Assembly (NCBI GenBank): GCA_004322085.1
Contig: SCRR01000397.1
Location: 1,344-65,343 of the forward strand
Direction: 5' to 3'
From: Burkholderiaceae bacterium
GTDB taxonomy: Bacteria > Pseudomonadota > Gammaproteobacteria > Burkholderiales > Burkholderiaceae_C
DNA length: 64,000 nucleotides
Positions within the stretch are counted from its first letter, which is position 1; each line of letters starts with the position of its first letter. Below, piece after piece: positions 5,796-22,901 of this stretch. The notes beneath the pieces are model-generated. The model saw only the letters and a list, made by a program, of their open reading frames with translations. It did no database searches and was not told the origin of the DNA. The translations under genes were made by a program, and so were the position numbers.

Positions 5796-7789
5796 TGAAG
5801 CCAGGCTGTACACGCGAGATCCTTGCAGGCGACAATCCGCAGCCAACGCGCCGCGACGCACGCCCAACGCTTCCAGGAAGCATTGATGCGGCATGCGGCG
5901 CCTTGCTGGGCATGCAGGCCGACGACGGCCATTGGCTGTTCGAACTCGAGGCGGATGCCACCATACCGGCGGAGTACGTTTTACTGACGCACTACCTCGG
6001 CGAAAAACCGAATCAGGCACTTGAAGCAAAAATCGCAGCCTACCTGCGCCGCATCCAGGGAAGCCACGGCGGCTGGCCGCTATTTTACGATGGCGCGTTC
6101 AACATGAGCGCCAGCGTCAAAGCCTATTTCGCATTGAAGGCCATCGGCGAATCCGTTGACGCGCCTTATATGCAACGTGCGCGCGAAGCGATACTGGCGC
6201 ATGGCGGCGCGGTGCATGCAAACATGTTCACACGCATTCTGCTCGCATTCTTTGGCGTAATCGACTGGAAAGCAGTATGCATGATGCCGCCCGAAATCAT
6301 GCTGCTGCCGAAGTGGTTTCCATTTCACCTGTCCAAGGTCTCTTACTGGGCACGTACCGTCATCGTGCCGTTGCTGGTGCTTCAGGCCTTGCGCCCGCGC
6401 GCGGCCAATCGACTGGACATAACGATAGACGAGCTGTTCATCGAATCGCCCAGGGCCATCGGGCCGGTACGCAGGGCCGAGCACCAAAACCGACTGTGGT
6501 TCGCCATCTTTGCCGGCATTGATGTTCTTCTGCACCTCGCGGACCGCTGGTTCCCCAAGAAAAGGCGTAAGCGCGCCATCGAGGCTGCCGTGCGTTTCGT
6601 GGACGAGCGCCTCAACGGCGAGGACGGTCTCGGTGCCATTTTCCCCGCAATGGCCAATGCGGTAATGATGTATGACGCACTTGGCTATCCACCGGACCAC
6701 CCACAACGTGCCACGGCAAGGCGCGCCATCGACAAACTGCTCGTCATCGGCGAGACTGAAGCGTATTGCCAGCCATGTCTTTCGCCAGTCTGGGACACTG
6801 CGCTGGCGGCGCACGCACTGATCGAGACTGGCGATCCGCGCGCCATTAAACACGCGGAACGCGGGCTGGACTGGCTCACTCCCCTGCAAATCCTCGACGT
6901 GCGTGGCGACTGGGCCTCACGCAGGCCCGACGTGCGACCGGGGGGATGGGCATTCCAGTTCGCCAACCCCCATTATCCCGACGTGGACGATACGGCAGTT
7001 GTGGCAATGGCCATGGACCGCGCAGGCAGATCACTGGGACACGACAACTACCGGCAGGCCATTGATCGCGCCTGCGACTGGGTAATCGGCATGCAAAGTC
7101 ACAATGGTGGATGGGGGGCTTTCGAATCGGAAAACACATGCTTCTATTTAAACAACATTCCTTTCTCGGATCATGGTGCGCTGCTCGATTCGCCCACCGC
7201 CGACGTCTCGGCGCGCTGTCTGTCAATGCTGTCGCAATTACCGACAACCCCCGAACGTTCAGCCTCGATGGCGCGCGCTGTCAGCTATTTGATCGACGCG
7301 CAGGAGGGGGACGGCAGCTGGTATGGACGTTGGGGCATGAACTATATCTATGGCACATGGTCCGCGCTGTGCGCGCTGCGCGCTGCCGGCCATGGGCCGG
7401 ACGCGCCAGCCATGCAACGCGGCGCACAATGGCTGCGATCCATCCAGAACAAGGACGGCGGATGGGGAGAAAATGGCGATAGCTACAAGCTTGACTATTC
7501 CGGCCACGAAACCGCACCAAGCACGCCTTCACAAACTGCCTGGGCGTTGCTCGGACTGATGGCGGCCGGAGCCGTGCACGAAGCGACAGTCGAGCGCGGC
7601 ATTGATTATTTACTGAGCACGCAAAATAAAGCCGGCCTATGGGACGAAGCATCATTCACGGCCACTGGCTTCCCACGCGTCTTCTATCTGCGCTATCACG
7701 GCTATGGCAAGTTTTTCCCGCTTTGGGCGCTGGCGCGCTATCGTAATCTGACCGGACACGACGCCCGCACCGTGCCTGGTGGAATGTAG
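5795..7789 (+). CDS. shc: Squalene-hopene cyclase
   Basis: 664 aa. Catalytic DVDDTA motif (D396 at nt 6980). Repeated QW-type motifs (GGWG/GSWYGRWG). Confidence 0.95.
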   Translation: MKPGCTREILAGDNPQPTRRDARPTLPGSIDAACGALLGMQADDGHWLFELEADATIPAEYVLLTHYLGEKPNQALEAKIAAYLRRIQGSHGGWPLFYDGAFNMSASVKAYFALKAIGESVDAPYMQRAREAILAHGGAVHANMFTRILLAFFGVIDWKAVCMMPPEIMLLPKWFPFHLSKVSYWARTVIVPLLVLQALRPRAANRLDITIDELFIESPRAIGPVRRAEHQNRLWFAIFAGIDVLLHLADRWFPKKRRKRAIEAAVRFVDERLNGEDGLGAIFPAMANAVMMYDALGYPPDHPQRATARRAIDKLLVIGETEAYCQPCLSPVWDTALAAHALIETGDPRAIKHAERGLDWLTPLQILDVRGDWASRRPDVRPGGWAFQFANPHYPDVDDTAVVAMAMDRAGRSLGHDNYRQAIDRACDWVIGMQSHNGGWGAFESENTCFYLNNIPFSDHGALLDSPTADVSARCLSMLSQLPTTPERSASMARAVSYLIDAQEGDGSWYGRWGMNYIYGTWSALCALRAAGHGPDAPAMQRGAQWLRSIQNKDGGWGENGDSYKLDYSGHETAPSTPSQTAWALLGLMAAGAVHEATVERGIDYLLSTQNKAGLWDEASFTATGFPRVFYLRYHGYGKFFPLWALARYRNLTGHDARTVPGGM

Positions 7790-7791
7790 GA

Positions 7792-8460
7792 ATGACCGGG
7801 CTCGTGGTCGTCGTCACCGGCTTGCGGTTCGAAGCCAGAATCGCGGCAGGCGGGGGTGTGCAAGTGCTGTGCCACCAGAACGCGACACTGGCCGCTCACC
7901 TGGAGGCTGCGCTCACACAGGACTGTCGCGGGATCGTCAGTTTCGGCATTGCTGGCGGCCTCGTTGATACGTTGCGGCCAGGAGAATGGGTGGTCGCACG
8001 CACATTGACCGACGGCACACGGCAAATCGATTGCGATGCCTTGTGGTCTGAATCGCTGTTGCGGGCACTGCCCACGGCACATCATGTCAACATGGTAGGT
8101 ACACGGATGCCCGCCATCACACCCGATGCCAAGCGCGCACTGCATGCGGCCACCGGCGCTGCGGCGGTCGACATGGAATCCCAAATCGTCGCCCGGATCG
8201 CTCAGGCCCGATCCATCCCATTTGTCTGCTGCCGCGTCATAGCGGACCCGGTCGAGCGGACGCTGCCAGCGGCGGCACTCGCGGGAGTCCGTAGCAACGG
8301 CTCGACCGACGCATTGGCAGTACTGGGTTCGATTGTCGCCTCGCCGGGCCAGCTGCCCGCACTGATGCAAGTCGCGCGTGATGCATGGATCGCACGCCGT
8401 GCACTGACACGCGGACGACGCAACATTGGCGCGGGCTTCGGGTTAATGCCCGGTGCATGA
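7792..8460 (+). CDS. hpnG: Hopanoid-associated phosphorylase/nucleosidase HpnG
   Basis: 222 aa PNP/MTAN-fold protein (SFGIAGGL, VDMES). Starts 3 nt after the shc stop. Confidence 0.8.
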   Translation: MTGLVVVVTGLRFEARIAAGGGVQVLCHQNATLAAHLEAALTQDCRGIVSFGIAGGLVDTLRPGEWVVARTLTDGTRQIDCDALWSESLLRALPTAHHVNMVGTRMPAITPDAKRALHAATGAAAVDMESQIVARIAQARSIPFVCCRVIADPVERTLPAAALAGVRSNGSTDALAVLGSIVASPGQLPALMQVARDAWIARRALTRGRRNIGAGFGLMPGA

Positions 8461-8486: not shown

Positions 8487-9704
8487 CTAACGGCCAGCCT
8501 GGGCACGCCCCTTCCACATGCCGCCTCGCCCACGCCAATGCTGAAACGCAGAGTCGAGTACGAATGCCGTATAAAGTGCTGCGATGCCCGGAAGCAACGG
8601 CCCCCACCAGATAGAACGCCCATAAAATTTCAGCATGGGCTGATACATCACTGCCATGATCAGCCACGCCAGCACACCCGCCACACGTGCGGCCCCTTCT
8701 GCAAACAGGGCAAATAGCGGTGGCACAAAAAAGGCCAAAGACAGCGCCGCCACAGCCGCAATCAGCCGCAACGGCGAATACTTGAGTTGCGCGTAAGCAG
8801 TGCGAGCCACCATTGTGCGCAATTCACCCAAACCGCTGTAGGGGCGCGCACTGGTAACACGCCTGCTAAGGCCAAGCCAAATCGCGCCTTGGGTCTTCAT
8901 GCGCGCGCCCAATGCGCAATCATCGATAATTTCTGAACGGATTGACTCCAGCCCGCCCGCCGCATCAAGTGCGTCGCGCCGCACCAGCATGCAGCCGCCG
9001 GCTGCGGCCGCAACCCGCGAATCGCGCCGATTGACCCACGCGAAGGGGTAAAGCATCTGAAAGAAAAACACGAAAGCGGGAACAAGGGCGTATTCCCAAA
9101 ACGAATCAGTACGCAGTCTCGCCATGAGCGAAACAAGCACACGATCATCGGTACGGGCACGGACGACCAGCCGCCGCACATTGTCTGACGCATGAAGGAT
9201 GTCGGCATCGGTCAACAACAGAAATTCGGGAGACCCCTGGAAGCCCGGGCGTGCCGCTGCGTCATCACAAGCGTGTGCAATACCCTGGCGCAGCGCCCAA
9301 AGCTTGCCGGTCCACCCCCGGGGCAACGAAGAGCCGTTCAATACGTCCAGCCGCTCACTTGCACCAAGGGCTTCAGCGGCGGCGCGGGCCCTTGCCGCCG
9401 TCCCGTCATCGCTGCCATCGTCGACAACGACGACCCTCAACGGACCTGCATAGTCCTGTTCAAACAGGCTTGTCACCATTGCGGCAATCGAACCTGCTTC
9501 GTTGCGTGCAGGGACCACCGCAACCACGCTTGGCCAGGCATCCGGCGTTCCGGTATTGGCTACATGCTCGGAGGACTTGTTCAAGGTCTGCCGGTCGTCT
9601 TCGCCATCTTGCTCGCGTGCGCGCCAGAATGCGCCACGTGCAACCAGCATGTAGAACCAGACGGCCAGCGATACCATGGCAACCAGCGTCGACAGCGCAG
9701 TCAA
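8487..9704 (-). CDS. hpnB: Hopene-associated family 2 glycosyltransferase HpnB
   Basis: 405 aa. N-terminal TM helix, GT2 motifs VVVDDGSDDGT and LLTDAD, C-terminal TM helices. Its TTG start overlaps the hpnA stop (TTGA). Confidence 0.8.
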   Translation of the reverse strand: MTALSTLVAMVSLAVWFYMLVARGAFWRAREQDGEDDRQTLNKSSEHVANTGTPDAWPSVVAVVPARNEAGSIAAMVTSLFEQDYAGPLRVVVVDDGSDDGTAARARAAAEALGASERLDVLNGSSLPRGWTGKLWALRQGIAHACDDAAARPGFQGSPEFLLLTDADILHASDNVRRLVVRARTDDRVLVSLMARLRTDSFWEYALVPAFVFFFQMLYPFAWVNRRDSRVAAAAGGCMLVRRDALDAAGGLESIRSEIIDDCALGARMKTQGAIWLGLSRRVTSARPYSGLGELRTMVARTAYAQLKYSPLRLIAAVAALSLAFFVPPLFALFAEGAARVAGVLAWLIMAVMYQPMLKFYGRSIWWGPLLPGIAALYTAFVLDSAFQHWRGRGGMWKGRAQAGR

Positions 9705-10750
9705 TTCAGGTATCCTTTTTCACGAAACCAGTCCAACGCGTCGGACAAGCCGTCGACATGGGATCGTGCATGGTAGCCAAGTTCGCGCTGGGCCTTGTGC
9801 GAGCTGAAGAACATCATATGGCACGACATCTTCAACCCGTCCAGTGTCAGGAACGGATCCCTGCCACCAAGCCGGGCCACCGCCTGGGCCGCCAGTGCCA
9901 GAGGATAAAGTGGCCAGCGAGGCAACCGGATCGTCGCAGCGGGCCTGCCAGTCATCGTGGCAACGACGCGAAGGATGTCGCGCAACATCACGTTGTCACC
10001 CCCCAGAATGTAGCGCTCGCCGACGACTCCACGCTGCAGTGCCAGCAGATGCCCTACGGCAACGTCATCGACGTGCACCAGGTTCAGACCGGTATCGACA
10101 TACGCCGGAATCCTGCCCAGCGCCGCCTGCACGATAATGCGGCCCGTGGGCGTCGGTTTGATGTCGCGCGGCCCCACTGGGGTAGAAGGATTGACGATCA
10201 CCGCAGGCAGCCGCCGCGTGGCGACCAAATGTTCAACCAGCCGCTCGGCCGCGATCTTGCTGCGCTTGTAGGCGCCTATCGCTTCGTCCTCGGTAGAAGG
10301 CATTCCTTCGTCAACCAGAGCATAATCGCTGGCGGACGCGCCACGCACCGCATCTTGCGTACGCAGTGTCGCAACACTGCTCGTATAAACGATTTTCTCT
10401 ATCCCGGCACGCAGCGCCTCTTCCATCACCACCCGCGTGCCCTCGACATTAGTGCGCACAAGCTCGCGCGCATTGGGCGCCCAGAGCCGGTAGTCGGCAG
10501 CGACATGCAGCAAATAGCGCACTCCGGCCAGGGCGCGCTGCATCGATACTGAATCGCATATATCGCCCACGGCCACCTCGACCGCCAGCCCATCCAGATT
10601 GTCGCGTCGACTGGTAGGACGAACCAGGACCCGTACTTTCAGCCCCTGTGCAACCGCAGCGCGCGCAACGGCCGAACCCACGAAGCCGGAAGCTCCGGTC
10701 ACCAGCAAGAGGTCGGAAGTCCCGATATCAGGGAAGTTGGCGCTAGGCAC
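9701..10750 (-). CDS. hpnA: Hopanoid-associated NAD-dependent sugar epimerase/dehydratase HpnA
   Basis: 349 aa. Rossmann motif VTGASGFVGS and catalytic YKRSK. The GTG start directly abuts the hpnH stop. Confidence 0.85.
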   Translation of the reverse strand: MPSANFPDIGTSDLLLVTGASGFVGSAVARAAVAQGLKVRVLVRPTSRRDNLDGLAVEVAVGDICDSVSMQRALAGVRYLLHVAADYRLWAPNARELVRTNVEGTRVVMEEALRAGIEKIVYTSSVATLRTQDAVRGASASDYALVDEGMPSTEDEAIGAYKRSKIAAERLVEHLVATRRLPAVIVNPSTPVGPRDIKPTPTGRIIVQAALGRIPAYVDTGLNLVHVDDVAVGHLLALQRGVVGERYILGGDNVMLRDILRVVATMTGRPAATIRLPRWPLYPLALAAQAVARLGGRDPFLTLDGLKMSCHMMFFSSHKAQRELGYHARSHVDGLSDALDWFREKGYLN

Positions 10751-11887
10751 TCATGGATTCTGTTCGTGCAGCTCGGATACCCTGCCTTGGGAATGACGCG
10801 AATACACACGGGCAGCAGGACGCTGGTGTTCGAACGACACCTCGGGCGCCATGGCGCCTTGAGTCCGGATGCCCCTGAGCGTGACGCCAAGCGCACGCAG
10901 CGGGTGAGCCAGAGTGTCATTGACTGCCGTCGCTTCGTAGCCGCAATGCACCATGCAGTCAGCGCACTTTTCATAGTTTCCGGTGCCGTATTTATCCCAC
11001 TCAGTCGTTTCCATGAGCTCGGTAAATGTCTTGGCATACCCCTCGGCCAGCAAATAACATGGGCGCTGCCAGCCGAACACGGTAAGCGTGGGATTACCCC
11101 AGGGGGTGCAATGATACGTGCGATTGCCGGCCAGGAAATCAAGGAACATGCCTGACTGGCTGAAAGCCCAGTTCCGCCCACCACGGCCACGTCGAAAAAT
11201 GTCGCGGAACAGTTCCTTGGTTTTTTCACGCTTCAGGAAATGCTCTTGGTCAGGCGCATGCTCATAGGCAAAACCGGGCGAAACAGTAATACCGTCTACG
11301 CCAAGTCCCTTGACGCTGTCGAAGAAATTCGCGACTTTTTCGGGCTTGGCGTTGTTGAAAAGGGTGCAATTGATGTTGACGCGAAAACCGCGCTCCTTGG
11401 CAAGCTTGATGGCCGCAACGGCGCGATCATACACGCCTTCCCTGCGAACTGACTCATCGTGCATTTCGCGGTCACCGTCCAGATGTATGGACCAGACGAA
11501 GAACGGGCTGGGCTTATAGTCGTCGATTTTCTTTTCCAGCAACAAGGCATTGGTACATAAATAGACGAATTTATGGCGAGCGACAATGCCTTTGACAATT
11601 TCAGGGAGATCTTTGTGTATCAGGGGCTCGCCGCCGGCAATCGACACGACGGGCGCACCGCATTCGTCCACGGCCGCAAGTGCTTCGGCCACTGAAATCC
11701 GCTTATCGAGAATATCTTCGGAATAATCGATCTTGCCGCAGCCCGCGCATTCGAGATTACACCGATACAGCGGCTCCAGCATCATTACCAGCGGATAGCG
11801 CTTAGTGCGCGTAAGACGTTTTTTAATTAGATATGCGCCAACGTATACCGACTGCAAAAAAGGTATGGCCACATTCAACTCCTGCAT
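10751..11887 (-). CDS. hpnH: Adenosyl-hopene transferase HpnH (radical SAM)
   Basis: 378 aa. CNLECAGC (CxxxCxxC) cluster motif. Positioned between ispH and hpnA as in other hopanoid loci. Confidence 0.9.
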   Translation of the reverse strand: MQELNVAIPFLQSVYVGAYLIKKRLTRTKRYPLVMMLEPLYRCNLECAGCGKIDYSEDILDKRISVAEALAAVDECGAPVVSIAGGEPLIHKDLPEIVKGIVARHKFVYLCTNALLLEKKIDDYKPSPFFVWSIHLDGDREMHDESVRREGVYDRAVAAIKLAKERGFRVNINCTLFNNAKPEKVANFFDSVKGLGVDGITVSPGFAYEHAPDQEHFLKREKTKELFRDIFRRGRGGRNWAFSQSGMFLDFLAGNRTYHCTPWGNPTLTVFGWQRPCYLLAEGYAKTFTELMETTEWDKYGTGNYEKCADCMVHCGYEATAVNDTLAHPLRALGVTLRGIRTQGAMAPEVSFEHQRPAARVYSRHSQGRVSELHEQNP

Positions 11888-11911
11888 TTATTGACGGTTT
11901 ATAGCTTCATC

Positions 11912-12874
11912 CTAACGCGCGGTCACACGGGGCTGGCGTAATCGAGGTCCTTTTTCTGCAAGCCCACGGGGCAAGCGAAAATGAGTATGTTCTTCTACTC
12001 CTTCCATTACGCTGACATCAACCGGGCCGATCTGGCGCAACGCGTCGATTACATCTTCGACCGTGCTTTCGGGCGCAGAGGCACCAGCGGTAATGCCAAC
12101 GACCTTCGCTCCGCGGACCCAGTCAGGATTAAGACCATTGCCATCTGCCAGCAAGTAGCTGGGGACGCCGCTACTTTCGCCGATTTCACGCAGCCGGTTC
12201 GAATTTGAGCTGTTGGCCGCGCCAACCACCAGGACGACATCGGCACGTTTGCACAATTCGCGTACGGCAGTCTGGCGGTTTTGCGTGGCGTAGCAGATGT
12301 CCTTGACGTTGGGACCAACAATATCGGAGAAACGCCGATGCAGCGCATCGATGATGCCGCGCGTCTCGTCAACCGAGAGAGTTGTCTGCGTGACGTACGA
12401 TATGGGCGTGTCTGGCGCCAACCGCAACGCGGCCACATCGGCTTCGGTCTGGACCAGATGCACCGGCCCATCAATTTGACCCATCGTGCCAAGAACCTCG
12501 GGATGCCCGGCGTGACCCACAAGAATGACCTCGCGGCCCTGCCCAACGTATTTCTTGCCCTGCAGATGCACCTTCGTGACGAGCGGACACGTGGCATCCA
12601 CAACTTTGAGCCCACGCTGTTTGGCTTCGGCCTCGACGGCACGCGACACGCCATGCGCGCTGAATATGGTCACCGCACCGGGAGGGACCTCGTGAAGTTC
12701 GTCGACGAAACGCGCACCCTTTACCTTGAGCGACTCGACGACGTGCCGGTTATGGACAATTTCGTGCCTGACATACACGGGCTCGCCGTATTTTTCAAGC
12801 GCACGCTCGACAATCTCGATGGCTCGCACCACACCAGCACAAAACCCACGAGGCTGAGCAAGAATGACTTGCAT
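11912..12874 (-). CDS. ispH: 4-hydroxy-3-methylbut-2-enyl diphosphate reductase
   Basis: [16 protein letters not shown]-terminus. GGAG RBS 6 nt upstream of the ATG at 12874. The ORF-track start at 12928 is probably an over-extension. Confidence 0.93.
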
Positions 12875-13007
12875 AAATGGCTCCGATTGGATTGGCGTCG
12901 ACACGTTTTTCCTGCGACTACGCCACATGGCTCACGCTCGCCATTCTAGCATCAAAGAAACCATCAATGCATAAAGCGTATACACGTTGTGGGGTTGATT
13001 CGCACCA

Positions 13008-13079: not shown

Positions 13080-13697
13080 TTACCCTTCGACGCGCGCGTT
13101 ATGATCAGTAATATATTTGATCAGGCCATCAGCGCCACTTCTGGCGAACTGGGTGCTCAACTGGGGCTGATAAAGCTTGATCAGCCATATGCCCATCATG
13201 TCTATGTCATAGATGCGCCAACCGGCCGGGGTATTGACAAGCCGGTACGCGACCTGCACGTTGTCACCGTCGCCGCTCTTGATTTCAGTACGAACTACGG
13301 CGTCGTTGCCCGCAGCATTGACGCTGGCGGGTTCAAAGCTGAATTTCACCACTTCGTCGCGAACCTGCACGAGCTGCAGTGCGTAGGTACGCACAAGTAG
13401 TGTCGTGAACTGCTGAACGAGAGCCTTCCGTTGGACGGCAGTCATGGTTTGCCACGCCGCGCCTGCGGACAAGCGGGTAGTTTGTGCGAAATCCGCATAA
13501 GGCAGAAAGTCGCGACGCACCACCTTGGCTGTCGCATCAATGTCGCCGTCCTTCGCTGCGGGGTCGGCCTTTGCTGCCGCCATCACTGTCTGCACGGCGC
13601 TCTTCACCACATCGTTGGGGCTCATCGATACCCCCGGCGAAGCTGCCGCGCGCGCCACCCAGAACACCGCAACCACCAGCAAAAGCAGTTTTTTCAT
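13080..13697 (-). CDS. hpnM: MlaC/Ttg2D-family periplasmic lipid-binding protein, hopanoid-associated HpnM
   Basis: Signal peptide MKKLLLLVVAVFWVARAAA. The toluene-tolerance Ttg2D-like body is recognised by eye. Divergent from hpnN. Start chosen at M9 of the track ORF. Confidence 0.7.
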   Translation of the reverse strand: MKKLLLLVVAVFWVARAAASPGVSMSPNDVVKSAVQTVMAAAKADPAAKDGDIDATAKVVRRDFLPYADFAQTTRLSAGAAWQTMTAVQRKALVQQFTTLLVRTYALQLVQVRDEVVKFSFEPASVNAAGNDAVVRTEIKSGDGDNVQVAYRLVNTPAGWRIYDIDMMGIWLIKLYQPQLSTQFARSGADGLIKYITDHNARVEG

Positions 13698-13790
13698 TAG
13701 GCTGTTTCCATCAATCGTCAATTTATTCCGTTGCGTCTCGCTGCCACTCCAGTTACAGTAGCCGCTTACGTTGTCTGCGCGTCATAGCTC

Positions 13791-13804
13791 GTGGCCATGG
13801 CCAC
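13791..13804. promoter_or_regulatory. Perfect 14-bp palindrome upstream of hpnN
   Basis: GTGGCCATGGCCAC, 33 nt upstream of the hpnN ATG within the hpnM/hpnN divergent region. Confidence 0.3.
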
Positions 13805-13836
13805 ACATCCACCACATTCAAACACCCCACGTATCC

Positions 13837-16422
13837 ATGCTGACCTCGCTCATTGTGCGCATTGTCCAGTTTTCGATGCGGCATGCCTACGCGGTCACTA
13901 TTGTAGTGCTGTCGTTGTCGGTCGCAAGCGGCATCTATGTCTCGACGCATTTCACGCTCGACAGCAACACGTCGGATCTGATCGCGACAAACACGCCTTG
14001 GGTCGAGCGCGGTCTGGCGGTCGACAAGGCTTTCCCGCAACGTGCAGACATCACGCTTGCCGTCGTTCAGGCCCCAGCGGCAGAGTTCGCCGATAAGGCA
14101 GCCAGCGAGCTGGCCGCACGGCTTGCCACCGAAACCACATATTTCAGCGCGGTCAGCCAGCCTGGCGCAGGCCCCTTCTTCGATCAAAACGGACTATTGT
14201 TTCTATCGAAACCCGACCTGGATGAACTCGTCAAACAATTGACCGACGCAAGGCCGCTGCTGAACCGGCTCGCGCGCGATCCATCGCTAAGTGGCCTTGC
14301 CAACCTGCTGTCCCTGACTCTGCTCACGCCGCTCGTGTCCGGGCAGGTCAAACTCGCCGACATGTCATCACTGCTGGAGCAAAGCGCGCAGACCGTGGAT
14401 GCTGTCCTTGCTGGCAAACCGGCCGGACTATCATGGCGAGGGCTCGTTGCCCCCGACACCCAGCCACGCAGCTTCATTCAGATACAAGCCGTGCCCGATT
14501 ACCAGGAACTTCAGGCCGGGTCGGCTGCCTCCGATCAAATCCGCAACGCGGCATCCGAACTGCGCCTGCATCAGCGATTTGGCGCAAGCGTACATCTGAC
14601 AGGCCCACGCCCACTGGCCGACGAAGAGTTGGCTTCGGTTCGAGAAGGCGAAGTGCCCAACGCGATAGCCACGTTCCTGGCGGTAATCGCAATATTGTGG
14701 TTAGCTGTGCGTTCGGGCAAAATGATATTTGCCGTGTTCATGACGCTGATTGTCGGTCTGACCATCACCACCGCCCTCGGACTGCTTATGGTCGGCTCGC
14801 TGAATATGATTTCCATCGCCTTCGCCGTCCTGTTTGTCGGGATCGGCGTAGACTACAGCATCCAGTTTGCCGTGCGCTACCGCGAGGAACGCTACCTACA
14901 GCCCCAACTCGGAACAGCGCTTGTCGACGCGGCGAAAACGATTGCAATGCCACTATCGCTCGCGGCGGCGGCCACCGCTGCAAGCTTCTTCTCGTTCCTG
15001 CCTACCGAGTATCGCGGAATGGGGGAACTCGGGCTGATTGCTGGCGTAGGCATCCTGTTCGTCGCCTTCCCGACAAGTCTCATACTGCTGCCGGCCATGA
15101 TCACGATACTTAAGCCGAAAGGCGAACGTGCCGCACCAGGATTCAAATGGCTGGCCCCTGCCGATCGATTTACGGACCGACACCGTAAACCGCTGCTGTT
15201 CGGAACGCTGATCCTGGTCGTGGCCTGCCTGCCCCTGCTTGCCTACCTGCGTTTCGACTTCAACCCCCTGCATTTAAAAGACCCTCACACCGAGGCAATG
15301 GAAACGCTGACGCAACTGGCCGGTTCTCCCGAAGCCGGTATCAACGACGTACAGATCCTCGCACCGTCGCTAAGTGTTGCAAACACCCAGGCGAAAAGGT
15401 TGCGAGAATTGCCCGAAGTCGGCCGAGTGACAACACTGAGCAACTTCATCCCCGAAAACCAATCTGAAAAGCTGGCAACGATCCAGACACTTGCGACAAC
15501 GCTGGCGTCCACTCTGAGCCAAGCCCCCAGCCCGTCGACCAGCGACAAGACACGCATTACGGCATTGAAAAACGCGGCAGGCATGCTCGAAAATGCCGCT
15601 CTTGACCACCCGGGTGCGGGTGCCGCGCCGGCGCAGCACCTGGCCGCTTCGCTACGCGAACTTGCGACGGCCAGCAGAGCAAAGCGCGATGACGCGGAAC
15701 ACGCCTTTTCGGGAACACTGAAACTTGCATTGGATTCGCTGCACCGATTGCTCGAACCCGGGCCAATTACTCAGGCGTCGCTGCCCGCCGGCCTGAAAAG
15801 ACAATGGCTTACGCCCGACGGCCGTGCACTTGTCGACATCGCGCCAAAGGTTCCGGCAGGAGCAAAGACGGACAACAATGCAGCGCTACGTGCGTTCACT
15901 GCCGCGGTGCTGCGCGCTGCGCCTGACGCCATAGGCGGACCGATCTCCATTCAGCATTCCGCTCAGACCATAATCCATGCATTCCTGCAAGCCAGTCTGT
16001 GGGCGTTGATTTCGATAACCGTACTGCTGTGGCTCGCCCTGCGCAATTTTGGCGACGTACTGCGTACGCTGGTCCCCTTGCTGGTCTCGGCCGCCGTAAC
16101 CCTTGAGTTGGCTGTGGTGTTGAACTGGCCATTGAACTTTGCGAACATCATTGCATTACCGCTATTGCTGGGCATAGGTGTCGCGTTCAAGATCTACTAC
16201 GTTGTCGCATGGCGCGAGGGCAAGGCCAGCTTGCTGCAATCGGGCCTGACCCAGGCCATCATTCTGTCGGCAGCAACGACCGCCGTGGCCTTTGGCAGCC
16301 TGTGCCTGTCGCACCACCCGGGCACAGCCAGCATGGGAAAATTGTTGGCATTGTCGCTGGTATGCACGCTTATCGGCGCCGTTTTCTTCCAGCCGATCTT
16401 AATGGGGCACCCCAGGAAGTGA
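13837..16422 (+). CDS. hpnN: RND-superfamily hopanoid transporter HpnN
   Basis: About 861 aa. Two blocks of about 6 TM helices, each preceded by a large periplasmic loop (MMPL/SSD-like). Start chosen at [13 protein letters not shown]. Confidence 0.85.
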
Positions 16423-16543
16423 AAAAGTCCGGTGTTCAGATATGCGGCGCCCTCAAGCCGCGCGCCGACTTCGGCCCAACCAGCAACAAGAGCCGGTGCA
16501 GTCAGCACACCTCTGGCCCACACGCGAGGACGCTGCTGCAAAA

Positions 16544-17485
16544 CTAGCGCACGAAAAGCCGCGCGAAACGCGCCATGCGTGGCACAAATGTCGGGCGCAA
16601 TAGTCGGTGATCGTAGCCATCCATACGACGACGATCTTCAGTCAGACATAAATCCAGCATCTCTTTGAGCCCCAGATCCAAGCCAATCTGCTGGTCGCCC
16701 GTCAGGGCAAAATTGGCGTCCTGCATCACACCCCTGTCGTCCAGCCCCTTGGCAATGCCAATACGCTCCCAGATCAGGAACAGCCATACACGCAGGACTT
16801 TCAGCGCAAACAACGGCCGCTGCCACCAGCGCAATTGCCGCCGGTACCAGGCCACCCAATTAGCAAAAAACAATATATGGCGGGCTTCTTCCTGAACCAC
16901 CGGCTCGAATGTTTCCACGAGTTCGACCGGAAAATATCCCGTTCGCTTAGCCGATTCAAAGAGCCCGAAGGCAAAAAAACTATCGATGCACTCGCTATAT
17001 CCGGTGACCAGCCAGCCCCATTCAGGATCGGCTGACGCCTCATAAGACGGTTCAGGCGCGAGATCAATACCATAGGCCGCCACCAGCTTGCCCAGTACGA
17101 CCTTGTGACGAGCCTCCTCGCCGCCATCCATGACAAGCGCCTCGTTCAACAACGGATCGCGCACTGTGTCAGCATAGGCGTGGACCCGCCGCATGGCCCG
17201 CTCCTCGGTTTGCACCGCAATGTCCCAGATAGGCAGCGAGACAACACGCTGCAGGGTCTGGGCATCAAGTATAGGCCACGCCAACGCTGCCGGCTTGTAT
17301 GGGTTGTGAGTATCGAGCAGCATGTGGCAGAACAACTGCTTGTGCGCATCCGACCCGATTCGCACTGGTGCCTGGTCATCTCCCTGCCAGTTTCGCATGG
17401 CATGGTCGGCTGCCTCGACAGCCACTGCGTCACAATCATGGTGTGTCATTTCATCGTCACGCGCTTGCGTGGTGTTCGCCGTCAT
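16544..17485 (-). CDS. Uncharacterised ferritin-like di-iron-carboxylate protein (putative oxygenase/desaturase), last gene of the hpnIJKL operon
   Basis: 313 aa. EEARH at aa 123-127 (nt 17105-17119) and at aa 199-203 (nt 16877-16891), with upstream acidic residues E94/E95 and E165. This gives the E...ExxH...E...ExxH ligand pattern. Amphipathic W/R/L-rich segment at aa ~213-245. Starts 12 nt after the hpnL stop. Confidence 0.7.
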   Translation of the reverse strand: MTANTTQARDDEMTHHDCDAVAVEAADHAMRNWQGDDQAPVRIGSDAHKQLFCHMLLDTHNPYKPAALAWPILDAQTLQRVVSLPIWDIAVQTEERAMRRVHAYADTVRDPLLNEALVMDGGEEARHKVVLGKLVAAYGIDLAPEPSYEASADPEWGWLVTGYSECIDSFFAFGLFESAKRTGYFPVELVETFEPVVQEEARHILFFANWVAWYRRQLRWWQRPLFALKVLRVWLFLIWERIGIAKGLDDRGVMQDANFALTGDQQIGLDLGLKEMLDLCLTEDRRRMDGYDHRLLRPTFVPRMARFARLFVR

Positions 17486-17497
17486 GACCCCTCCCGG

Positions 17498-18520
17498 TCA
17501 AGAGTTGCGTGCCGTCTCACGAGCAAGCCAGGAAGCACGCAGCCGATTGGTCTCGGCCCAGTGCCAGGATATCAGTGCCGGAACGCCAAATACCAGTTCG
17601 CGCATGCGCTTTACCAGCGACAGCGCGATGCACGCATCGGGAGGCAGCCCGATAAGGCTGCCAAACAAGATCAGGCCGCCCTCCTGCACACCCAGCCCGC
17701 CAGGCACCACAAAAATAATATTGCGCAGCGCCTGGGTTGCCGCTTCGATGGCAATGGCCTCCACAATAGTGACTGGATAACCTAGCAACCACAGGCCGAG
17801 CCAACTCTCGAAGCTGCCAATCAGCAGTCCCACGAACTGCCAGATGCACGCAACCAGCAACCTCCGGCGTCTACTGTATAACGCGCGGATTTCCGTATCC
17901 AGCCCAGGGCCGTTCATCAATTCCGCCAGGCGCGAGTCATCACCTAGAACTTTCTTCGATAGCGCCGCGAGGCGCGTGAACACATTACCGTGCCGCAACA
18001 GCACGAACAATGCAATCGGCAGCAATATGCTGACCAGCACGGCAATAAGTACCGACCCCAGAGTGCCGGCGTGCACGGTCACCATGACCAAAAGCCCCAC
18101 ACCCAGGGCCACAAACAGGCACTGATTGACCATCGTTAACAGGACTTCGACGATGACGCTGGCCGCTGCGGCCACGCCACGGATGCCACGCCACCTTACC
18201 AGGCGAATTCCGATGAGATCGCCTCCGATACCCGCCAGCGGCAGCAGCCTGTTACTGGCCTCGCGTATCGCTGCAATCCAGAAGAGAACACCGATGGTGG
18301 CACGGCGCTGCGGGTCGCGCGGCGACAGCAAAACACGCCAGCCCGCGGCATCCAGCCATAAAGGCAGCACATGAAATGGCAACAGCCACAACAAGGCCCA
18401 GCCCGCGTTGTCGATGGCACTGTAAACCTCGGACCACCCCTGGTGTGCAATAAGCACAACAAACGCAATCAGGCCAAGCACGCCGGCAATGTAGCCAATC
18501 CGCCGCATAGTCATGAGCAC
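17498..18520 (-). CDS. hpnL: Hopanoid-associated integral membrane protein HpnL (UPF0104 / lysyl-PG-synthase TM-region-like)
   Basis: 340 aa, about 8 predicted TM helices. Overlaps the hpnK stop by 10 nt. Confidence 0.7.
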   Translation of the reverse strand: MLMTMRRIGYIAGVLGLIAFVVLIAHQGWSEVYSAIDNAGWALLWLLPFHVLPLWLDAAGWRVLLSPRDPQRRATIGVLFWIAAIREASNRLLPLAGIGGDLIGIRLVRWRGIRGVAAAASVIVEVLLTMVNQCLFVALGVGLLVMVTVHAGTLGSVLIAVLVSILLPIALFVLLRHGNVFTRLAALSKKVLGDDSRLAELMNGPGLDTEIRALYSRRRRLLVACIWQFVGLLIGSFESWLGLWLLGYPVTIVEAIAIEAATQALRNIIFVVPGGLGVQEGGLILFGSLIGLPPDACIALSLVKRMRELVFGVPALISWHWAETNRLRASWLARETARNS

Positions 18521-19383
18521 ACCGCCGCAGGATCAGAATAGCCACGGCACAAAAGGCAACACCCGGCGATAGCATCGCGCACCCGCGTCGAAAGCAGCGC
18601 CGCCAGCTCGTCGGTGTGCCGGTAACCGGCTGCGCTGCTCGCCACGCCATCGCGCACGGCGGGATGCAGATACACCTCGGAGAGGCCATCGGGCAAATCC
18701 CGCAAGATCCCAAGCAGCACCGTTTCATCCAGCCCACCACTTTCGCGAATGCCAAAAACGTGGTCGTTGTGGGCTATGCCTGCCTTGTCGAGACGCCTGC
18801 GCATCAGAGCCAGCCACGGTCGCAACCAAGGACCAGAACCCGGCTCGCTGGGTAGCCGGACGGCGCGCAGGCCAAATTCCCGGCCGATTGAAAGCACCAG
18901 GGACAGGACAGTGGGATGCAAATGGAAATGCTTGTGCCCGTTGACGTGATCCAGGAGCAAGCCTGTTGCGGCAAACGCTTCAAATTGAGCGCGTATTTCG
19001 GCCGCCAACTGCCGGCGCAAACGCGGCAGCAAAAAAAAGCGCGCGCCATTGCGTACCATAGCGCTGTTGAACACGCCGTGCGCATCGACCAGATCAGGGA
19101 TGCGCTCCGGCGGCAACACCGCCGCTCCGTCAGCCAGCACCAGATGCAGTCCAACTGCCAGACCCGGAAGACGGCGTGCACGCGCTATGGCATCCGCCGC
19201 AGCCGGCGCCGCGACCATGAGGCTTGCGGCACCCAGCACGCCATGCAGACAGGCAGTTTCGACCGCTTCATTGACAGCCTCGTGCAGGCCGTAATCATCG
19301 GCGGTTATGATCAGACGCGGGCGGGTCACGACGTCACATCTTTCTTGTGCCGCCCTGCGTGTAAAAAACAGCCAATCATGCAT
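18511..19383 (-). CDS. hpnK: YdjC-like carbohydrate deacetylase HpnK
   Basis: 290 aa with the IITADDYG metal-binding N-terminal motif of the YdjC family. Lies between hpnJ and hpnL. The start may be the internal GTG at 19329. Confidence 0.8.
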   Translation of the reverse strand: MHDWLFFTRRAAQERCDVVTRPRLIITADDYGLHEAVNEAVETACLHGVLGAASLMVAAPAAADAIARARRLPGLAVGLHLVLADGAAVLPPERIPDLVDAHGVFNSAMVRNGARFFLLPRLRRQLAAEIRAQFEAFAATGLLLDHVNGHKHFHLHPTVLSLVLSIGREFGLRAVRLPSEPGSGPWLRPWLALMRRRLDKAGIAHNDHVFGIRESGGLDETVLLGILRDLPDGLSEVYLHPAVRDGVASSAAGYRHTDELAALLSTRVRDAIAGCCLLCRGYSDPAAVCS

Positions 19384-19408
19384 TCGACAAACACTGGCAA
19401 GAACCCAA

Positions 19409-20830
19409 TCAGGCCCGATGCGCGCGCAGGAAGTGAAAGAATTCCACCCCCTCGCGCAAGCGGCGCTTCATCATGTCCCAACTCATCAGCATTTCGCGGA
19501 CGATTTCCCAGATCTTTGACGGGCGGAAATAAAATCTTTTGTAGAACACCTCGACACTGTGGTAGATGTCTTCCTTCGACAGGTGCGGGTAACTGATCAG
19601 CGCAAGCTGGACACCTGTGTCATTGACAAGATTGGTCGCTTCGTTTTCCTGGAGCCAGCCGTTTTCGACGGCCTGCCTGTACAGCTCCGTACCGGGGTAC
19701 GGAGCAGCCAGTGAGACTTGAATGGTGTGAGGATTGATCTCCTTGGCGAAACGTATGGTTTTCTCGATGGTCTCTTTGGTTTCACCAGGCAGGCCAAGGA
19801 TGAACGTGCCGTGGATGATGATGCCAAGCTTGCGGCAATCTTCGGTGAAGCGCCGCGCTATATCGGTGCGCAGGCCCTTTTTAATGTTGAGCAGGATCTG
19901 ATCGTCACCCGACTCATAGCCCACGAGCAGCAGCCGCAGGCCATTGTCCTTCATGATCTTCAGCGTCTTGTAGGGCACATTGGCCTTGGCGTTGCAGGAC
20001 CACGTGACGCCCAACTTGCCCAGCCCGACGGCAATTTCCTCGACACGCTGCTTGAAGTCGGTAAAGGTGTCATCATCGAACATGATCTCTTTAACCTCGG
20101 GCATGTTCTCTTTGATCCATTTCACCTCGGCCAGCACACTTTCGGTTGAGCGGACCCGATAGCGGTGACCACCTACCGTCTGCGGCCATAGGCAGAACGT
20201 GCATCGGGAACGGCAGCCACGCCCCGTGTAGAACGACACGTAGGGGTGCTTGAGATAGCCAATAAAATAATTGTTGATATTCAGATCGCGCCGATAGATG
20301 GGCGCGACAAATGGCAGTCCATCCATATCTTCAATGGTTGCGCGCGGTGGGTTGTGCTTGACACTGCCATCGGCCAGCTTGTAGCTCAGGCCACGAATAT
20401 CTTCCAGCGGCAGTCCTTCAGCCACCTCTTTGCAGGTGTAATCGAATTCTTCACGCGCCACGAAATCGATGGCGGCCGAAGCCTGTAACGACGGTGTCGG
20501 CTCGACGGCAACCTTGGCGCCAACCATGCCGATCAGAATGTCCGCGCGGCGCGCCTTGAGCAACTCGGCGAATTTTGCGTCAGTGGGAAAGGACGGTGTG
20601 CTGGTGTGAATAATGACCAGATCATAGCCCTGGGCAATATTCAACGTGTCTTCGACCGAAAGGTCGTCGGCAGGAGCATCCAGTACCCGGGATTCGGGCA
20701 CCAGCGCCGCAGGCTGGGCCAGCCACGTCGGGTACCAAAAACTTTTGATCTCGCGCTTGGCCTGATAGCGCGAGCCTGCGCCGCCATCAAAGCCGTCAAA
20801 CGAAGGAGCCTGCAAAAAAAGTGTTTTCAT
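19409..20830 (-). CDS. hpnJ: B12-binding radical SAM protein HpnJ
   Basis: Start chosen at MKTLFLQAPSFDG. CRSRCTFC (CxxxCxxC) motif. N-terminal cobalamin-binding-like domain. Confidence 0.85.
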   Translation of the reverse strand: MKTLFLQAPSFDGFDGGAGSRYQAKREIKSFWYPTWLAQPAALVPESRVLDAPADDLSVEDTLNIAQGYDLVIIHTSTPSFPTDAKFAELLKARRADILIGMVGAKVAVEPTPSLQASAAIDFVAREEFDYTCKEVAEGLPLEDIRGLSYKLADGSVKHNPPRATIEDMDGLPFVAPIYRRDLNINNYFIGYLKHPYVSFYTGRGCRSRCTFCLWPQTVGGHRYRVRSTESVLAEVKWIKENMPEVKEIMFDDDTFTDFKQRVEEIAVGLGKLGVTWSCNAKANVPYKTLKIMKDNGLRLLLVGYESGDDQILLNIKKGLRTDIARRFTEDCRKLGIIIHGTFILGLPGETKETIEKTIRFAKEINPHTIQVSLAAPYPGTELYRQAVENGWLQENEATNLVNDTGVQLALISYPHLSKEDIYHSVEVFYKRFYFRPSKIWEIVREMLMSWDMMKRRLREGVEFFHFLRAHRA

Positions 20831-20888
20831 GTAAATCGAGTTCCACTGGCTACGCGGGCTAGACGAACCACCCACACATTGACACGAC

Positions 20889-22055
20889 TCAATACCGTGA
20901 CGCGGTACCTTTTCCACGACTGTGAAGCACCGCACCGCGCCACTTCACCTGCCAGCCAGTCAAGGCAACCGCCCACTCGAGCAATAGTAGCGCATCGCGC
21001 AGCGGAATCAACAGGAGTTCGCGCCAGAGCGGTGTCGCATGCTTGAATTCTGGCCTGGAAAAGTATAGCAAAGCTCGCGATCCGAGACCCAACAGGGCCA
21101 GAATGCCGTTGGGCACGCCAGGCGCCAGGGCCAGCCCCAGCAGCACGACGGGCGTGGTGAAGCAAAGGCACGTCGGGATGAATCCCAGAGGGGCGATCGA
21201 CCGGATGATGCGCAGCCACCGCAATTCACGCGCCCATAATGTGGAAAACCCCACATCACTGACCTCGGTGGCAACCAACAAATCCGACAAAACCGTGCGC
21301 AAGGACTTCTGACGAGTCAGCTCGCCAAGCCAGAAGTCGTCCGCCAGCGTATCGCGCAGCGCCTCAAACCCACCAATTGACACCAGGACTTCGCGTCGCA
21401 TCGCAATCGTCGAACCGAACGAAAACCGCGTGGAGCCAAATGCGTGTGCGAGCCTGACCGACGGCACAAACCAGTCGTCAATAAACAGGCGCCCCATGCG
21501 CGACCAGAAGCCCCGCCCTGCAACCCCGTGGTACAGGCAAGTGACGATACCCACATCGGAATCGGCCAGCGGCGCCACCACGCGTGTCAGATAATCGGCG
21601 GGAACACTGATGTCGCTGTCGGCCAATACGAACCAGCCATACCTTGCTCGCGGGAGCATGTTGATGAGATTGCTGACCTTCGGATTGGAGCCATACAGAC
21701 GCGAGTTGATGACAAGCGCAATATCAAGCTGTGGAAATTCTGCACGCAGCCGTCGTACCACGTCAATGGCAGGGTCCTCGTTGTCCCGCACACCAAAAAT
21801 GAGCTCGTAGTCGGGATATGCCTGTACGCAGAAGCTACGCAGATTCTCGTACAGCCGCGGTTCCGCGCCACAAAGCGGCTTGAGCACGCTTACCGGCTGC
21901 GGATGGCCAGACACGCCAACGCGGGCAGATGGAACGTCCGGACCGCGCGGGCTTTTCAACACCACGTACAACACAACACACGCGTAGATCGCACCTGCAA
22001 CTACAAGGGCAGTGCCAAGCCAGTAGAGGCCCATATCAAAAGCGTTCATCGACAT
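20889..22055 (-). CDS. hpnI: Hopanoid-associated glycosyltransferase HpnI
   Basis: 388 aa. N-terminal TM helix, a GT2/GT21-like core (LADSD), C-terminal TM helices. First gene of the hpnI-J-K-L run. Confidence 0.8.
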   Translation of the reverse strand: MSMNAFDMGLYWLGTALVVAGAIYACVVLYVVLKSPRGPDVPSARVGVSGHPQPVSVLKPLCGAEPRLYENLRSFCVQAYPDYELIFGVRDNEDPAIDVVRRLRAEFPQLDIALVINSRLYGSNPKVSNLINMLPRARYGWFVLADSDISVPADYLTRVVAPLADSDVGIVTCLYHGVAGRGFWSRMGRLFIDDWFVPSVRLAHAFGSTRFSFGSTIAMRREVLVSIGGFEALRDTLADDFWLGELTRQKSLRTVLSDLLVATEVSDVGFSTLWARELRWLRIIRSIAPLGFIPTCLCFTTPVVLLGLALAPGVPNGILALLGLGSRALLYFSRPEFKHATPLWRELLLIPLRDALLLLEWAVALTGWQVKWRGAVLHSRGKGTASRY

Positions 22056-22160: not shown

Positions 22161-22901
22161 CTACGACGGCGCCCTCGACACACCGTAAGTAGCCGACACC
22201 ACCAGCCAGCGGCCATGTATCGACTGCCGCGAACGGGCCTGATCCCAAAACCGGGCTTCTTCGGACGTCTTTGCCTTGCGACGCCGCATCCCATAATACA
22301 GCAGGCCCGGAAACGCCAGCAGGTGTTCGACCCATCGCTTGGGTTTGGTTTCATTCACCTCGTGCAGAGTGATGTTGCCGTAGCCACTATTGTTCAGCAC
22401 CTGATGCAGCAAGCCGAACGTAAAGGGAAAATACGTGATGTAGTCCTTTCCGGGCTTCTTGCCGATGCCGGGGCGGAAGCCGGAGTGAAACCCACGCAGG
22501 AAAAATTGCAGCCGCGAGCGCATGTACAAGGTGTTAGGGGTCGTAATGATGACTACACCGCCTGGCCGCAAATTAGCGGCAAAGCTGGCCACGGCACAGC
22601 CAGGGCTAAGCAGCAAATGAATGGCCTCACAGCAGACGACCGCATCGTACTGCTGCGTTCCGGGCATGGGTGTGTTCAGATCCTGCTCGATCACGTTGCG
22701 ATAGCCATTGTTTTCGCGGGGAAACTCCCACAGACATGCGCCGTCCAGCGCAACGCCAGAGCCCTTCAACGCCTCGCCGAGCCAGCCGTCCCCGCAGGGT
22801 GCATCCAGTACGGCTTTTACGTCGAGTTCCTGCAGGATTGAAAGCACGACTGGATAATAAGGATGGTTTGGATAACCTGGTACTTCCTGTATTGAAATCA
22901 C
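22161..22901 (-). CDS. Class I SAM-dependent methyltransferase, substrate unknown
   Basis: 246 aa with a GTG start. Motif I VLDAPCGDG and post-I acidic residue. Lies between the LPS-core-type cluster and hpnI. Confidence 0.75.
   Translation of the reverse strand: MISIQEVPGYPNHPYYPVVLSILQELDVKAVLDAPCGDGWLGEALKGSGVALDGACLWEFPRENNGYRNVIEQDLNTPMPGTQQYDAVVCCEAIHLLLSPGCAVASFAANLRPGGVVIITTPNTLYMRSRLQFFLRGFHSGFRPGIGKKPGKDYITYFPFTFGLLHQVLNNSGYGNITLHEVNETKPKRWVEHLLAFPGLLYYGMRRRKAKTSEEARFWDQARSRQSIHGRWLVVSATYGVSRAPS

Follow-up and report, generated by a model that had tools for sequence, protein, structure and literature searches.

What does the gene that follows hpnL encode, at the end of the hpnI-J-K-L operon in a 64,000-nucleotide (nt) stretch of Burkholderiaceae DNA (assembly GCA_004322085.1, contig SCRR01000397.1; hereafter the window), and does its product act on hopanoids? 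We analyzed the 313-amino-acid (aa) protein of this open reading frame (ORF) under the working name FLP. An original prediction, made from the letters of the window alone, had described it as a di-iron-carboxylate protein and a candidate O2-dependent hopanoid-tailoring enzyme. The ORF begins with ATG, its translation agrees with the residues quoted at that time, and its coordinates bear out the layout described: it lies on the strand of hpnL, starts 12 nt past the hpnL stop codon and is convergent to hpnN. From the ligand residues, the predicted fold and the gene neighborhoods presented below, we give a probability of roughly one half to the reading that FLP is an O2-dependent oxidase of extended hopanoids that acts at the membrane together with HpnL.

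FLP carries two EEARH motifs, found at exactly the nucleotide positions that the original prediction had given (Table 1). Their E-x-x-H pairs, E124/H127 and E200/H203, are predicted metal ligands, each pair being preceded by a predicted carboxylate ligand. The upstream acids had been named as E94/E95 and E165; all are present, and the conserved acid of helix 1 is E94, not E95. Conservation was followed in two alignments, one of 36 relatives with 29-80% identity (A1) and one of 62 sequences that comprise orthologues and the alphaproteobacterial paralogue (A2). Within A1, E123, E199 and H203 are invariant, conservation reaches 90% or more at E124, H127, E165, D168 and E200, and E94 is conserved in most sequences. 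All of these residues are invariant in the 62 sequences of A2. A lack of conservation of the six putative ligands had been named as a result that would speak against the di-iron claim; the set is instead kept down to about 30% identity. Among 20,000 shuffles of the FLP protein, 4% contain any repeated 5-mer, 0.8% contain E...ExxH...E...ExxH at the FLP spacing and 0.04% contain two EExxH. We regard conservation as the stronger argument for the motifs than these shuffle statistics. Four distant paralogues in A1 (P0194, P0210, P0226 and P0255) have Q or F in place of the first-motif His and altered helix-1 and helix-3 acids and, having lost these ligand residues, are probably non-catalytic. One of the ligand-losing distant paralogues is annotated as MiaE by its source.

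Sequence searches did not place FLP in any named family. Neither Pfam nor NCBIfam gave a match at E up to 0.01, and a PDB sequence search gave none at E up to 10. A PDB profile search returned a single marginal match, the MiaE-like protein 5ux1 (E = 0.24), in which both motifs are aligned. When the 36 aligned members were scanned permissively against Pfam, only sub-threshold matches appeared, all of them to families of the ferritin-like clan: Rubrerythrin in 15 of the 36, AurF in 12, and COQ7, ribonucleotide reductase (RNR) small chain, DUF455 and MiaE in one or two each. An AlphaFold2 model built from the 62-sequence alignment (pLDDT 88, pTM 0.87) predicts a four-helix-bundle core whose helices 86-105, 111-137, 154-182 and 187-217 bear E94, E124/H127, E165 and E200/H203, respectively, that is, the E, ExxH, E, ExxH ligand order of the ferritin-like superfamily on four helices. 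Using this model in a Foldseek search of the PDB, we found that the top 50 matches are exclusively di-metal carboxylate proteins (RNR R2/NrdF, R2lox and acyl-ACP desaturase). The top match is the RNR protein R2F (1r2f; E = 1.8e-3, probability 1.00), and the best TM-scores of the search (0.53-0.57) belong to the R2lox structures 4ac8 (Mycobacterium tuberculosis Rv0233) and 6f6c (Geobacillus R2loxI). A chlamydial Mn/Fe R2 is also among the matches, and the stearoyl-ACP desaturases 1afr and 2uw1 score lower (TM 0.33-0.40). Since these fold matches come without a sequence match in Pfam, NCBIfam or PDB, FLP is, as judged from its model, a new and unnamed family in the ferritin-like di-metal carboxylate superfamily, with R2 and R2lox as its nearest folds. 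Thus, the profile-HMM searches proposed in the original prediction match no named family at curated thresholds, the proposed structure prediction and fold search lead to R2, R2lox and acyl-ACP desaturase, and the predicted di-metal carboxylate four-helix bundle is supported by the conserved ligands, the model and the fold matches.

An amphipathic Trp/Arg-rich stretch had also been proposed to hold FLP at the membrane. The helical hydrophobic moment reaches its maximum in FLP (0.60) at aa 206-223, consistent with such a stretch at the end of helix 4, and W210, W213, W221 and R223 are conserved among the orthologues of A2. The most hydrophobic 19-mer of the protein, aa 226-244, has a Kyte-Doolittle value of 1.36, under the usual transmembrane threshold, and we therefore rejected a true transmembrane helix at this position. 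FLP has no signal peptide. By analogy with Coq7 and alternative oxidase, we reasonably infer that the end of helix 4 and the hydrophobic helix after it form a monotopic in-plane membrane anchor.

We then turn to the genomic distribution of FLP, where the link with hopanoids is found. The family is large, with more than 7,300 clusters at 90% identity and 909 at 50% reaching E <= 1e-3, and NCBI names the homologues only 'ferritin-like domain-containing protein'. The FLP orthologue group, with 58-93% identity, extends across Alpha-, Beta- and Gammaproteobacteria. Gene neighborhoods were read in 80 genome loci with 10-kb flanks, plus further contigs. At 23 of the 80 loci, hpn genes lie within 10 kb of FLP, in several gene orders, and further hpn-linked cases occur in Cupriavidus, Crenobacter, Pseudoduganella and Caballeronia. 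Altogether, FLP orthologues of 53-93% identity lie inside hpn clusters in at least five gene orders and in three proteobacterial classes. The order hpnI-J-K-L-FLP or hpnK-L-FLP is found in Rhodanobacteraceae, Dyella, Azotobacter, Azomonas, three unusual Pseudomonas species and Nevskia, usually with a convergent hpnA and then shc downstream. Cupriavidus and Crenobacter have FLP-hpnB, a convergent hpnA and then ispH-hpnH(-hpnIJKL)-hpnM-hpnN; in C. metallidurans CH34 and Cupriavidus sp. D384, FLP is in the hpn cluster without an adjacent hpnIJKL. In Pseudoduganella, FLP stands at the cluster edge, convergent with hpnA. A gammaproteobacterial metagenome-assembled genome (MAG; L048) has FLP-hpnI-J-K-hpnN-hpnL, Burkholderiales MAGs have hpnA...FLP-shc, and a relative at 53% identity is part of an FLP-hpnK-hpnL group. 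On plasmid p3 of Caballeronia zhejiangensis (L093, NZ_CP084287.1 511158-519283), hpnI, an hpnL-like gene, FLP and hpnJ share one strand. This plasmid copy of FLP was matched in two tblastn pieces with no coding sequence listed, and may thus be a pseudogene.

The most constant neighbor of FLP is hpnL, which is adjacent to it in gamma-, beta- and alphaproteobacterial loci. The gene-neighborhood check that had been suggested for the hpn linkage thus yields several independent gene orders and a recurrent adjacency to hpnL, and FLP is conserved in hpn clusters across taxa. We consider its embedding in hpn clusters of varied order in three classes to be strong guilt-by-association evidence, and the same is true of its co-transfer with hpn clusters into Pseudomonas. 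Several minor observations accompany these loci. One Cupriavidus locus (L082) has cyoABCD directly upstream of FLP, and the other strand of the C. zhejiangensis p3 region holds a second hpnK-hpnL pair and a cytochrome b/b6-domain gene. The PLSDB records carry no annotation on the FLP copies of C. metallidurans and Burkholderia cenocepacia. Public records label five orthologues (P0052, P0488, P0492, P0504 and P0520) as 'aminomethyltransferase', which is probably an annotation error copied from record to record.

In alphaproteobacteria, the pairing with hpnL takes a distinct form. A Zavarzinia sp. and Stellaceae-like and Rhodospirillaceae MAGs carry FLP-FLP2-hpnL or FLP-hpnL units with no other hpn genes nearby, and the partner passes the HpnL model with 283.7 bits against a cut-off of 195.65. 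FLP2 is a paralogue of about 36% identity that keeps all ligands. The two proteins are fused in one ORF of about 450-580 aa at two loci (L055 and L077) and in the metagenomic proteins P0118, P0272 and P0273, and these natural fusions suggest an R2-like heterodimer. On three unrelated contigs, the FLP-hpnL units adjoin copper-handling genes (L081 7074-10004; L087 12003-14692; L094 8600-11373): PCuAC/LpqE-like, SCO1, DUF2946 and PepSY_TM on one contig, and DUF2946, an unannotated protein of about 305 aa, CopC and CopD on the others. The Zavarzinia PepSY_TM gene and the start of FLP share 4 nt.

We compared FLP with known di-metal proteins. R2lox (R2-like ligand-binding oxidase), which is of near-equal length to FLP, has the same E / ExxH / E / ExxH order and a similar spacing within each pair. 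R2lox proteins hold a long-chain fatty-acid ligand in a channel to the metal site, a Mn/Fe cofactor and a Tyr-Val cross-link, and they too have no assigned physiological function. Sequence similarity between the two is not detectable, the link between the ligand pairs is much shorter in FLP (41 residues from E124 to E165), and FLP, unlike R2lox, has the Trp/Arg-rich amphipathic C-terminal helix pair and a conserved genomic partner in HpnL. The class I RNR R2/NrdF proteins share the di-metal carboxylate site on a four-helix core; however, their Pfam model PF00268 reaches only 2 of the 36 members (E = 0.089), FLP has no nrdA/nrdE context, and it is predicted to be membrane-associated. Acyl-ACP desaturases such as the stearoyl-ACP delta-9 desaturases are di-iron enzymes that oxidize lipid C-H bonds, and they have a twin (D/E)ExxH motif of the EExRH type, as in FLP. 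Their structural match to the model is weak, their Pfam family gives no match at E up to 10, and FLP has no ACP-related context. The six-ligand set and the amphipathic helices also liken FLP to the interfacial di-iron proteins Coq7 (DMQ hydroxylase), alternative oxidase/PTOX and AcsF cyclase. Amphipathic helices dock the bundle of Coq7, alternative oxidase and AcsF on one leaflet, and their substrates are isoprenoids or lipids; AcsF is the aerobic counterpart of BchE, a B12-radical-SAM (S-adenosylmethionine) enzyme to which HpnJ is related. The COQ7 model touches 2 of the 36 members (E = 0.0065), and no Coq7, alternative oxidase or AcsF structure ranks among the 50 best fold matches. Of the PDB entries, only MiaE-like 5ux1 aligns with both FLP motifs in the sequence-profile search; the MiaE family itself (PF06175) reaches 1 of 36 members at E = 0.038, and AurF (PF11583) comes second in frequency among the sub-threshold Pfam matches. 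FLP differs from both in having no tRNA or arylamine context.

On the reading that we favor, FLP would reside in the cytoplasm, bound peripherally to the membrane, and would work as a carboxylate oxidase of R2-like fold with a di-metal site (Fe/Fe or Mn/Fe). A reduced metal pair held by E94, E124, H127, E165, E200 and H203 would activate O2 and oxidize a C-H bond of a membrane lipid, which would reach the site from the cytoplasmic surface of the bilayer, with HpnL as the membrane partner. Because FLP is the last gene of hpnI-J-K-L-FLP, the substrate would most likely be an extended hopanoid, namely bacteriohopanetetrol (BHT) or its glucosamine or cyclitol-ether derivative, and the product would most likely be a hopanoid hydroxylated in the side chain, of the bacteriohopanepentol (BHpentol) type, or desaturated in the rings, of the delta-6 type. 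Electrons could come from a flavin reductase or a ferredoxin. A plausible electron donor of FLP is an NADPH-dependent FMN reductase (PF03358), whose gene immediately precedes FLP in the same orientation at 19 loci of Burkholderia, Paraburkholderia and Trinickia; the outer flanks differ among these loci. A conserved 95-aa ORF without a Pfam match often follows the FMN reductase gene.

What is reported of hopanoid chemistry leaves room for such an enzyme. It is expressly stated that no genes are known for the formation of BHpentol and bacteriohopanehexol (BHhexol), with their fifth and sixth side-chain hydroxyls, or for ring unsaturation (PMC12583986), in agreement with the premise of the original prediction that these steps lack assigned enzymes, and the only proposed desaturase candidates are unrelated 'sterol desaturase family' proteins (PMC12583986). 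HpnL, HpnA and HpnB have no known function (PMC12583986; bioRxiv 10.1101/2025.07.29.667474). B. cenocepacia makes BHT cyclitol ether and BHpentol cyclitol ether, each also in an unsaturated form, and Azotobacter vinelandii is among the few organisms with characterized BHpentol derivatives; both carry FLP. Among alphaproteobacteria, reports of BHpentols and BHhexols are confined to Rhodospirillales and Sphingomonadales (PMC12583986), a range that the two-paralogue trio of Rhodospirillales-type lineages fits in a suggestive way. We found no description of or name for FLP in the hopanoid literature, including recent genomics papers. In Table S8 of one of them (bioRxiv 10.1101/2025.07.29.667474), a '-' stands between hpnL and hpnA in Dyella and Azotobacter, at the place of FLP, which was evidently overlooked in this domain-based synteny survey because it has no domain annotation. 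A requirement of FLP for cyclitol-ether synthesis was considered and rejected, as replicons of Methylobacterium bullatum and Mycetohabitans carry hpnJ and hpnL and no FLP, a weak argument from single replicons.

A hopanoid-tailoring role of FLP is plausible, with a few possible counter-examples. More specifically, and only tentatively, FLP, working with HpnL, may be the missing O2-dependent hydroxylase that converts BHT-type hopanoids to BHpentols, with FLP2 adding the next hydroxyl, that of the hexols, in alphaproteobacteria, or the family may be the delta-6 hopanoid desaturase. Bacteriohopanepolyols and fossil hopanes are widely used as biomarkers. If the proposal is true, one class of geochemically used hopanoids would directly record O2-dependent biosynthesis, and HpnL could be assigned a function. 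An O2-activating di-metal enzyme in hpn clusters would also offer a defined gene to knock out in organisms amenable to genetics (B. cenocepacia, A. vinelandii, Cupriavidus and Dyella) and, if confirmed, would extend the R2/R2lox-like proteins by a new branch that is membrane-associated and has its own membrane partner.

The findings that weigh against a hopanoid substrate come from FLP outside hpn clusters. At about 45 of the 80 loci (in Burkholderia, Paraburkholderia, Pandoraea, Trinickia and Caballeronia), the 10-kb flanks are free of hpn genes, and the non-hpn contexts are heterogeneous (katG-ahpC, TonB-ExbB, aroA-cmk-rpsA and copper genes). Aliidongia dinghuensis carries FLP alone, near gcvT-gcvH-gcvP (L088 11691-16134), and Aliidongia is listed in the literature among the genera without shc. 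Zavarzinia sp. CC-PAN008 carries an FLP-FLP2-hpnL trio, and a published table records 0 of 4 Zavarziniales genomes for SHC and HpnH. Other Zavarzinia species are not among the closest homologues of the CC-PAN008 FLP, so that this strain may be atypical and the genus-level statement on shc may miss it. Relatives at 35-42% identity (Gloeobacter, P0137) are likewise without hpn context, and given these unrelated contexts the hopanoid link holds for the FLP orthologue group, not for the whole superfamily branch. The main rival reading makes FLP and HpnL a module for the oxidation of membrane lipids in general, shared by organisms with and without hopanoids. Its substrate would be a non-hopanoid compound (for example another polar lipid, a polyprenyl or a quinone), and FLP would be present in hpn clusters only through a common role in envelope remodelling. 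Orthologues of 65-70% identity lack an hpn neighbor in many Burkholderiaceae, which together with Aliidongia and the Zavarzinia strain speaks for a general module, as do the alphaproteobacterial FLP-hpnL units beside copper genes instead of hpn genes and, in Trinickia, a CDP-diacylglycerol pyrophosphatase gene (PF02611) directly after FLP on the same strand (L020 6746-7501; also L062, L066 and L069). We nevertheless hold this reading to be rather unlikely, since the five or more gene orders described above put FLP inside hpn clusters in three classes, the rare Pseudomonas species with a hopanoid cluster hold FLP within that cluster, the Burkholderiaceae genera concerned all make hopanoids or carry hpn genes elsewhere, and 3 of 4 Stellaceae genomes have SHC in a published table.

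Two further readings give FLP another function. FLP might oxidize no substrate and be instead an accessory protein that stores metal, counters redox stress or generates a radical, for example as a cofactor subunit like R2, or it might protect the O2-sensitive radical-SAM enzymes HpnH and HpnJ. R2 subunits generate the radical for a partner enzyme, and R2 subunits are the best fold matches of FLP; the operon holds a radical-SAM enzyme, and some non-hpn loci have an oxidative-stress or metal context (katG-ahpC, FUR, TonB, copper genes). The radical Tyr of R2, however, sits four residues after the His, and the corresponding segment of FLP, aa 128-135 (KVVLGKLV), has no Tyr. FLP also has no rubredoxin or ferritin-cage architecture, its 313 aa and membrane-anchor-like helix pair resemble interfacial di-iron oxidases and not storage proteins, and its constant partner is HpnL, not HpnJ or HpnH, so that we judge an accessory role improbable. 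The original prediction had alternatively considered N-oxygenation of the head group, with FLP acting as an AurF/CmlI-type enzyme on the free amine of BHT glucosamine or BHT cyclitol ether. HpnI, HpnK and HpnJ, which generate this amine, are encoded in the same operon, and 12 of the 36 family members match AurF weakly. Yet the best of these matches (E = 0.0014) is, like all the others, under the gathering score, and the query itself is unmatched. FLP has V196 where AurF has its third His, at position -4 from the second ExxH; the absence of this His had been noted in the original prediction, and the position is aliphatic across A1, with no His conserved in the family. FLP is moreover kept in the C. 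metallidurans and Cupriavidus sp. D384 clusters despite the lack of an adjacent hpnIJKL. We know of no report of nitro, nitroso or hydroxylamino hopanoids. The idea is weakened by the missing His and by the C. metallidurans cluster in particular, and we regard it as very improbable.

The coordinates of FLP, its predicted ligands and its neighbors are given in Table 1, where hpnI, hpnJ, hpnK, hpnL, hpnN, ispH, hpnH, hpnA and hpnB were identified by NCBIfam models that score above their curated cut-offs. The BHT cyclitol-ether genes hpnI, hpnJ and hpnK (18511..22055, minus strand) lie upstream of FLP in the same operon, and FLP ends 121 nt from the convergent hpnN. As ispH, hpnH, hpnA, hpnB, shc and hpnG are present too, the window carries a complete hpn island.

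Table 1 Coordinates of FLP, its predicted ligands and the neighboring genes in the window, followed by FLP loci of other sequences (L numbers)
Feature	Position	Strand	Basis
FLP, ferritin-like / R2-like di-metal carboxylate protein (predicted), 313 aa	16544..17485 including stop codon	-	ORF and translation
E94, predicted helix-1 carboxylate ligand	17204..17206	-	helix 86-105 of the model
EEARH motif 1, aa 123-127; E124-x-x-H127 predicted ligands, helix 2	17105..17119	-	helix 111-137 of the model
E165-C-I-D168, predicted helix-3 carboxylate ligand and conserved Asp	16982..16993	-	helix 154-182 of the model
EEARH motif 2, aa 199-203; E200-x-x-H203 predicted ligands, helix 4	16877..16891	-	helix 187-217 of the model
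aa 206-245, Trp/Arg-rich amphipathic end of helix 4 and hydrophobic helix 222-245; predicted in-plane membrane anchor	16751..16870	-	
GC hairpins, terminator-like, overlapping the FLP stop codon	16547..16573	-	pattern scan only
hpnL-FLP spacer, 12 nt, with GGAGG ribosome-binding site	17486..17497	-	direct sequence reading
hpnL, LPG_synthase_TM / flippase-like membrane protein	17498..18520	-	TIGR03476, 329.9 bits vs cut-off 195.65
hpnK	18511..19383	-	TIGR03473 above cut-off
hpnJ	19409..20935	-	TIGR03471 above cut-off
hpnI	20889..22055	-	TIGR03472 above cut-off
Class-I SAM methyltransferase, 246 aa, directly upstream of hpnI	22161-22901	-	Methyltransf_23
hpnN, hopanoid RND transporter, convergent with FLP	13771..16422	+	NF052374, 1199 bits vs cut-off 1100
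MlaC-family gene, hpnM-type, between hpnN and ispH	13080-13721	-	PF05494
ispH, hpnH, hpnA	9701-12928		NCBIfam models
hpnB	8487-9704		
hpnG	7792-8460		
Squalene-hopene cyclase gene (shc)	5795-7789		
FMN reductase-FLP examples	L016 8722-9441 and 9584-9871; L019 8441-9442		
FLP-FLP2-hpnL / fusion loci	L081 10001-12817; L087 8970-11895; L014 9995-12748; L055 6590-8344; L077 9998-11731		

A pattern scan of positions 16300-17700 gave no promoter-like site, and terminator-like sites number 7, against 1.3 expected in shuffles, by pattern scan only. The MlaC-family gene completes a proposed hopanoid-transport pair with hpnN. In Gloeobacter morelensis (L086 7808-12122), the 35%-identity relative of FLP lies between unannotated 333- and 360-aa genes and a DUF2092 (LolA-like periplasmic) gene; the 333- and 360-aa genes were checked as HpnL-like candidates and are not. 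An FLP protein identical to that of the window is also recorded in assembly GCA_040959255.1, where its contig measures 73 kb, and the closest named relatives are Rhodanobacter and Dyella proteins of about 79% identity. Upstream of the methyltransferase gene that precedes hpnI, a block of GT4 and GT2 glycosyltransferase genes and two polysaccharide deacetylase genes is found (L085 1-5325).

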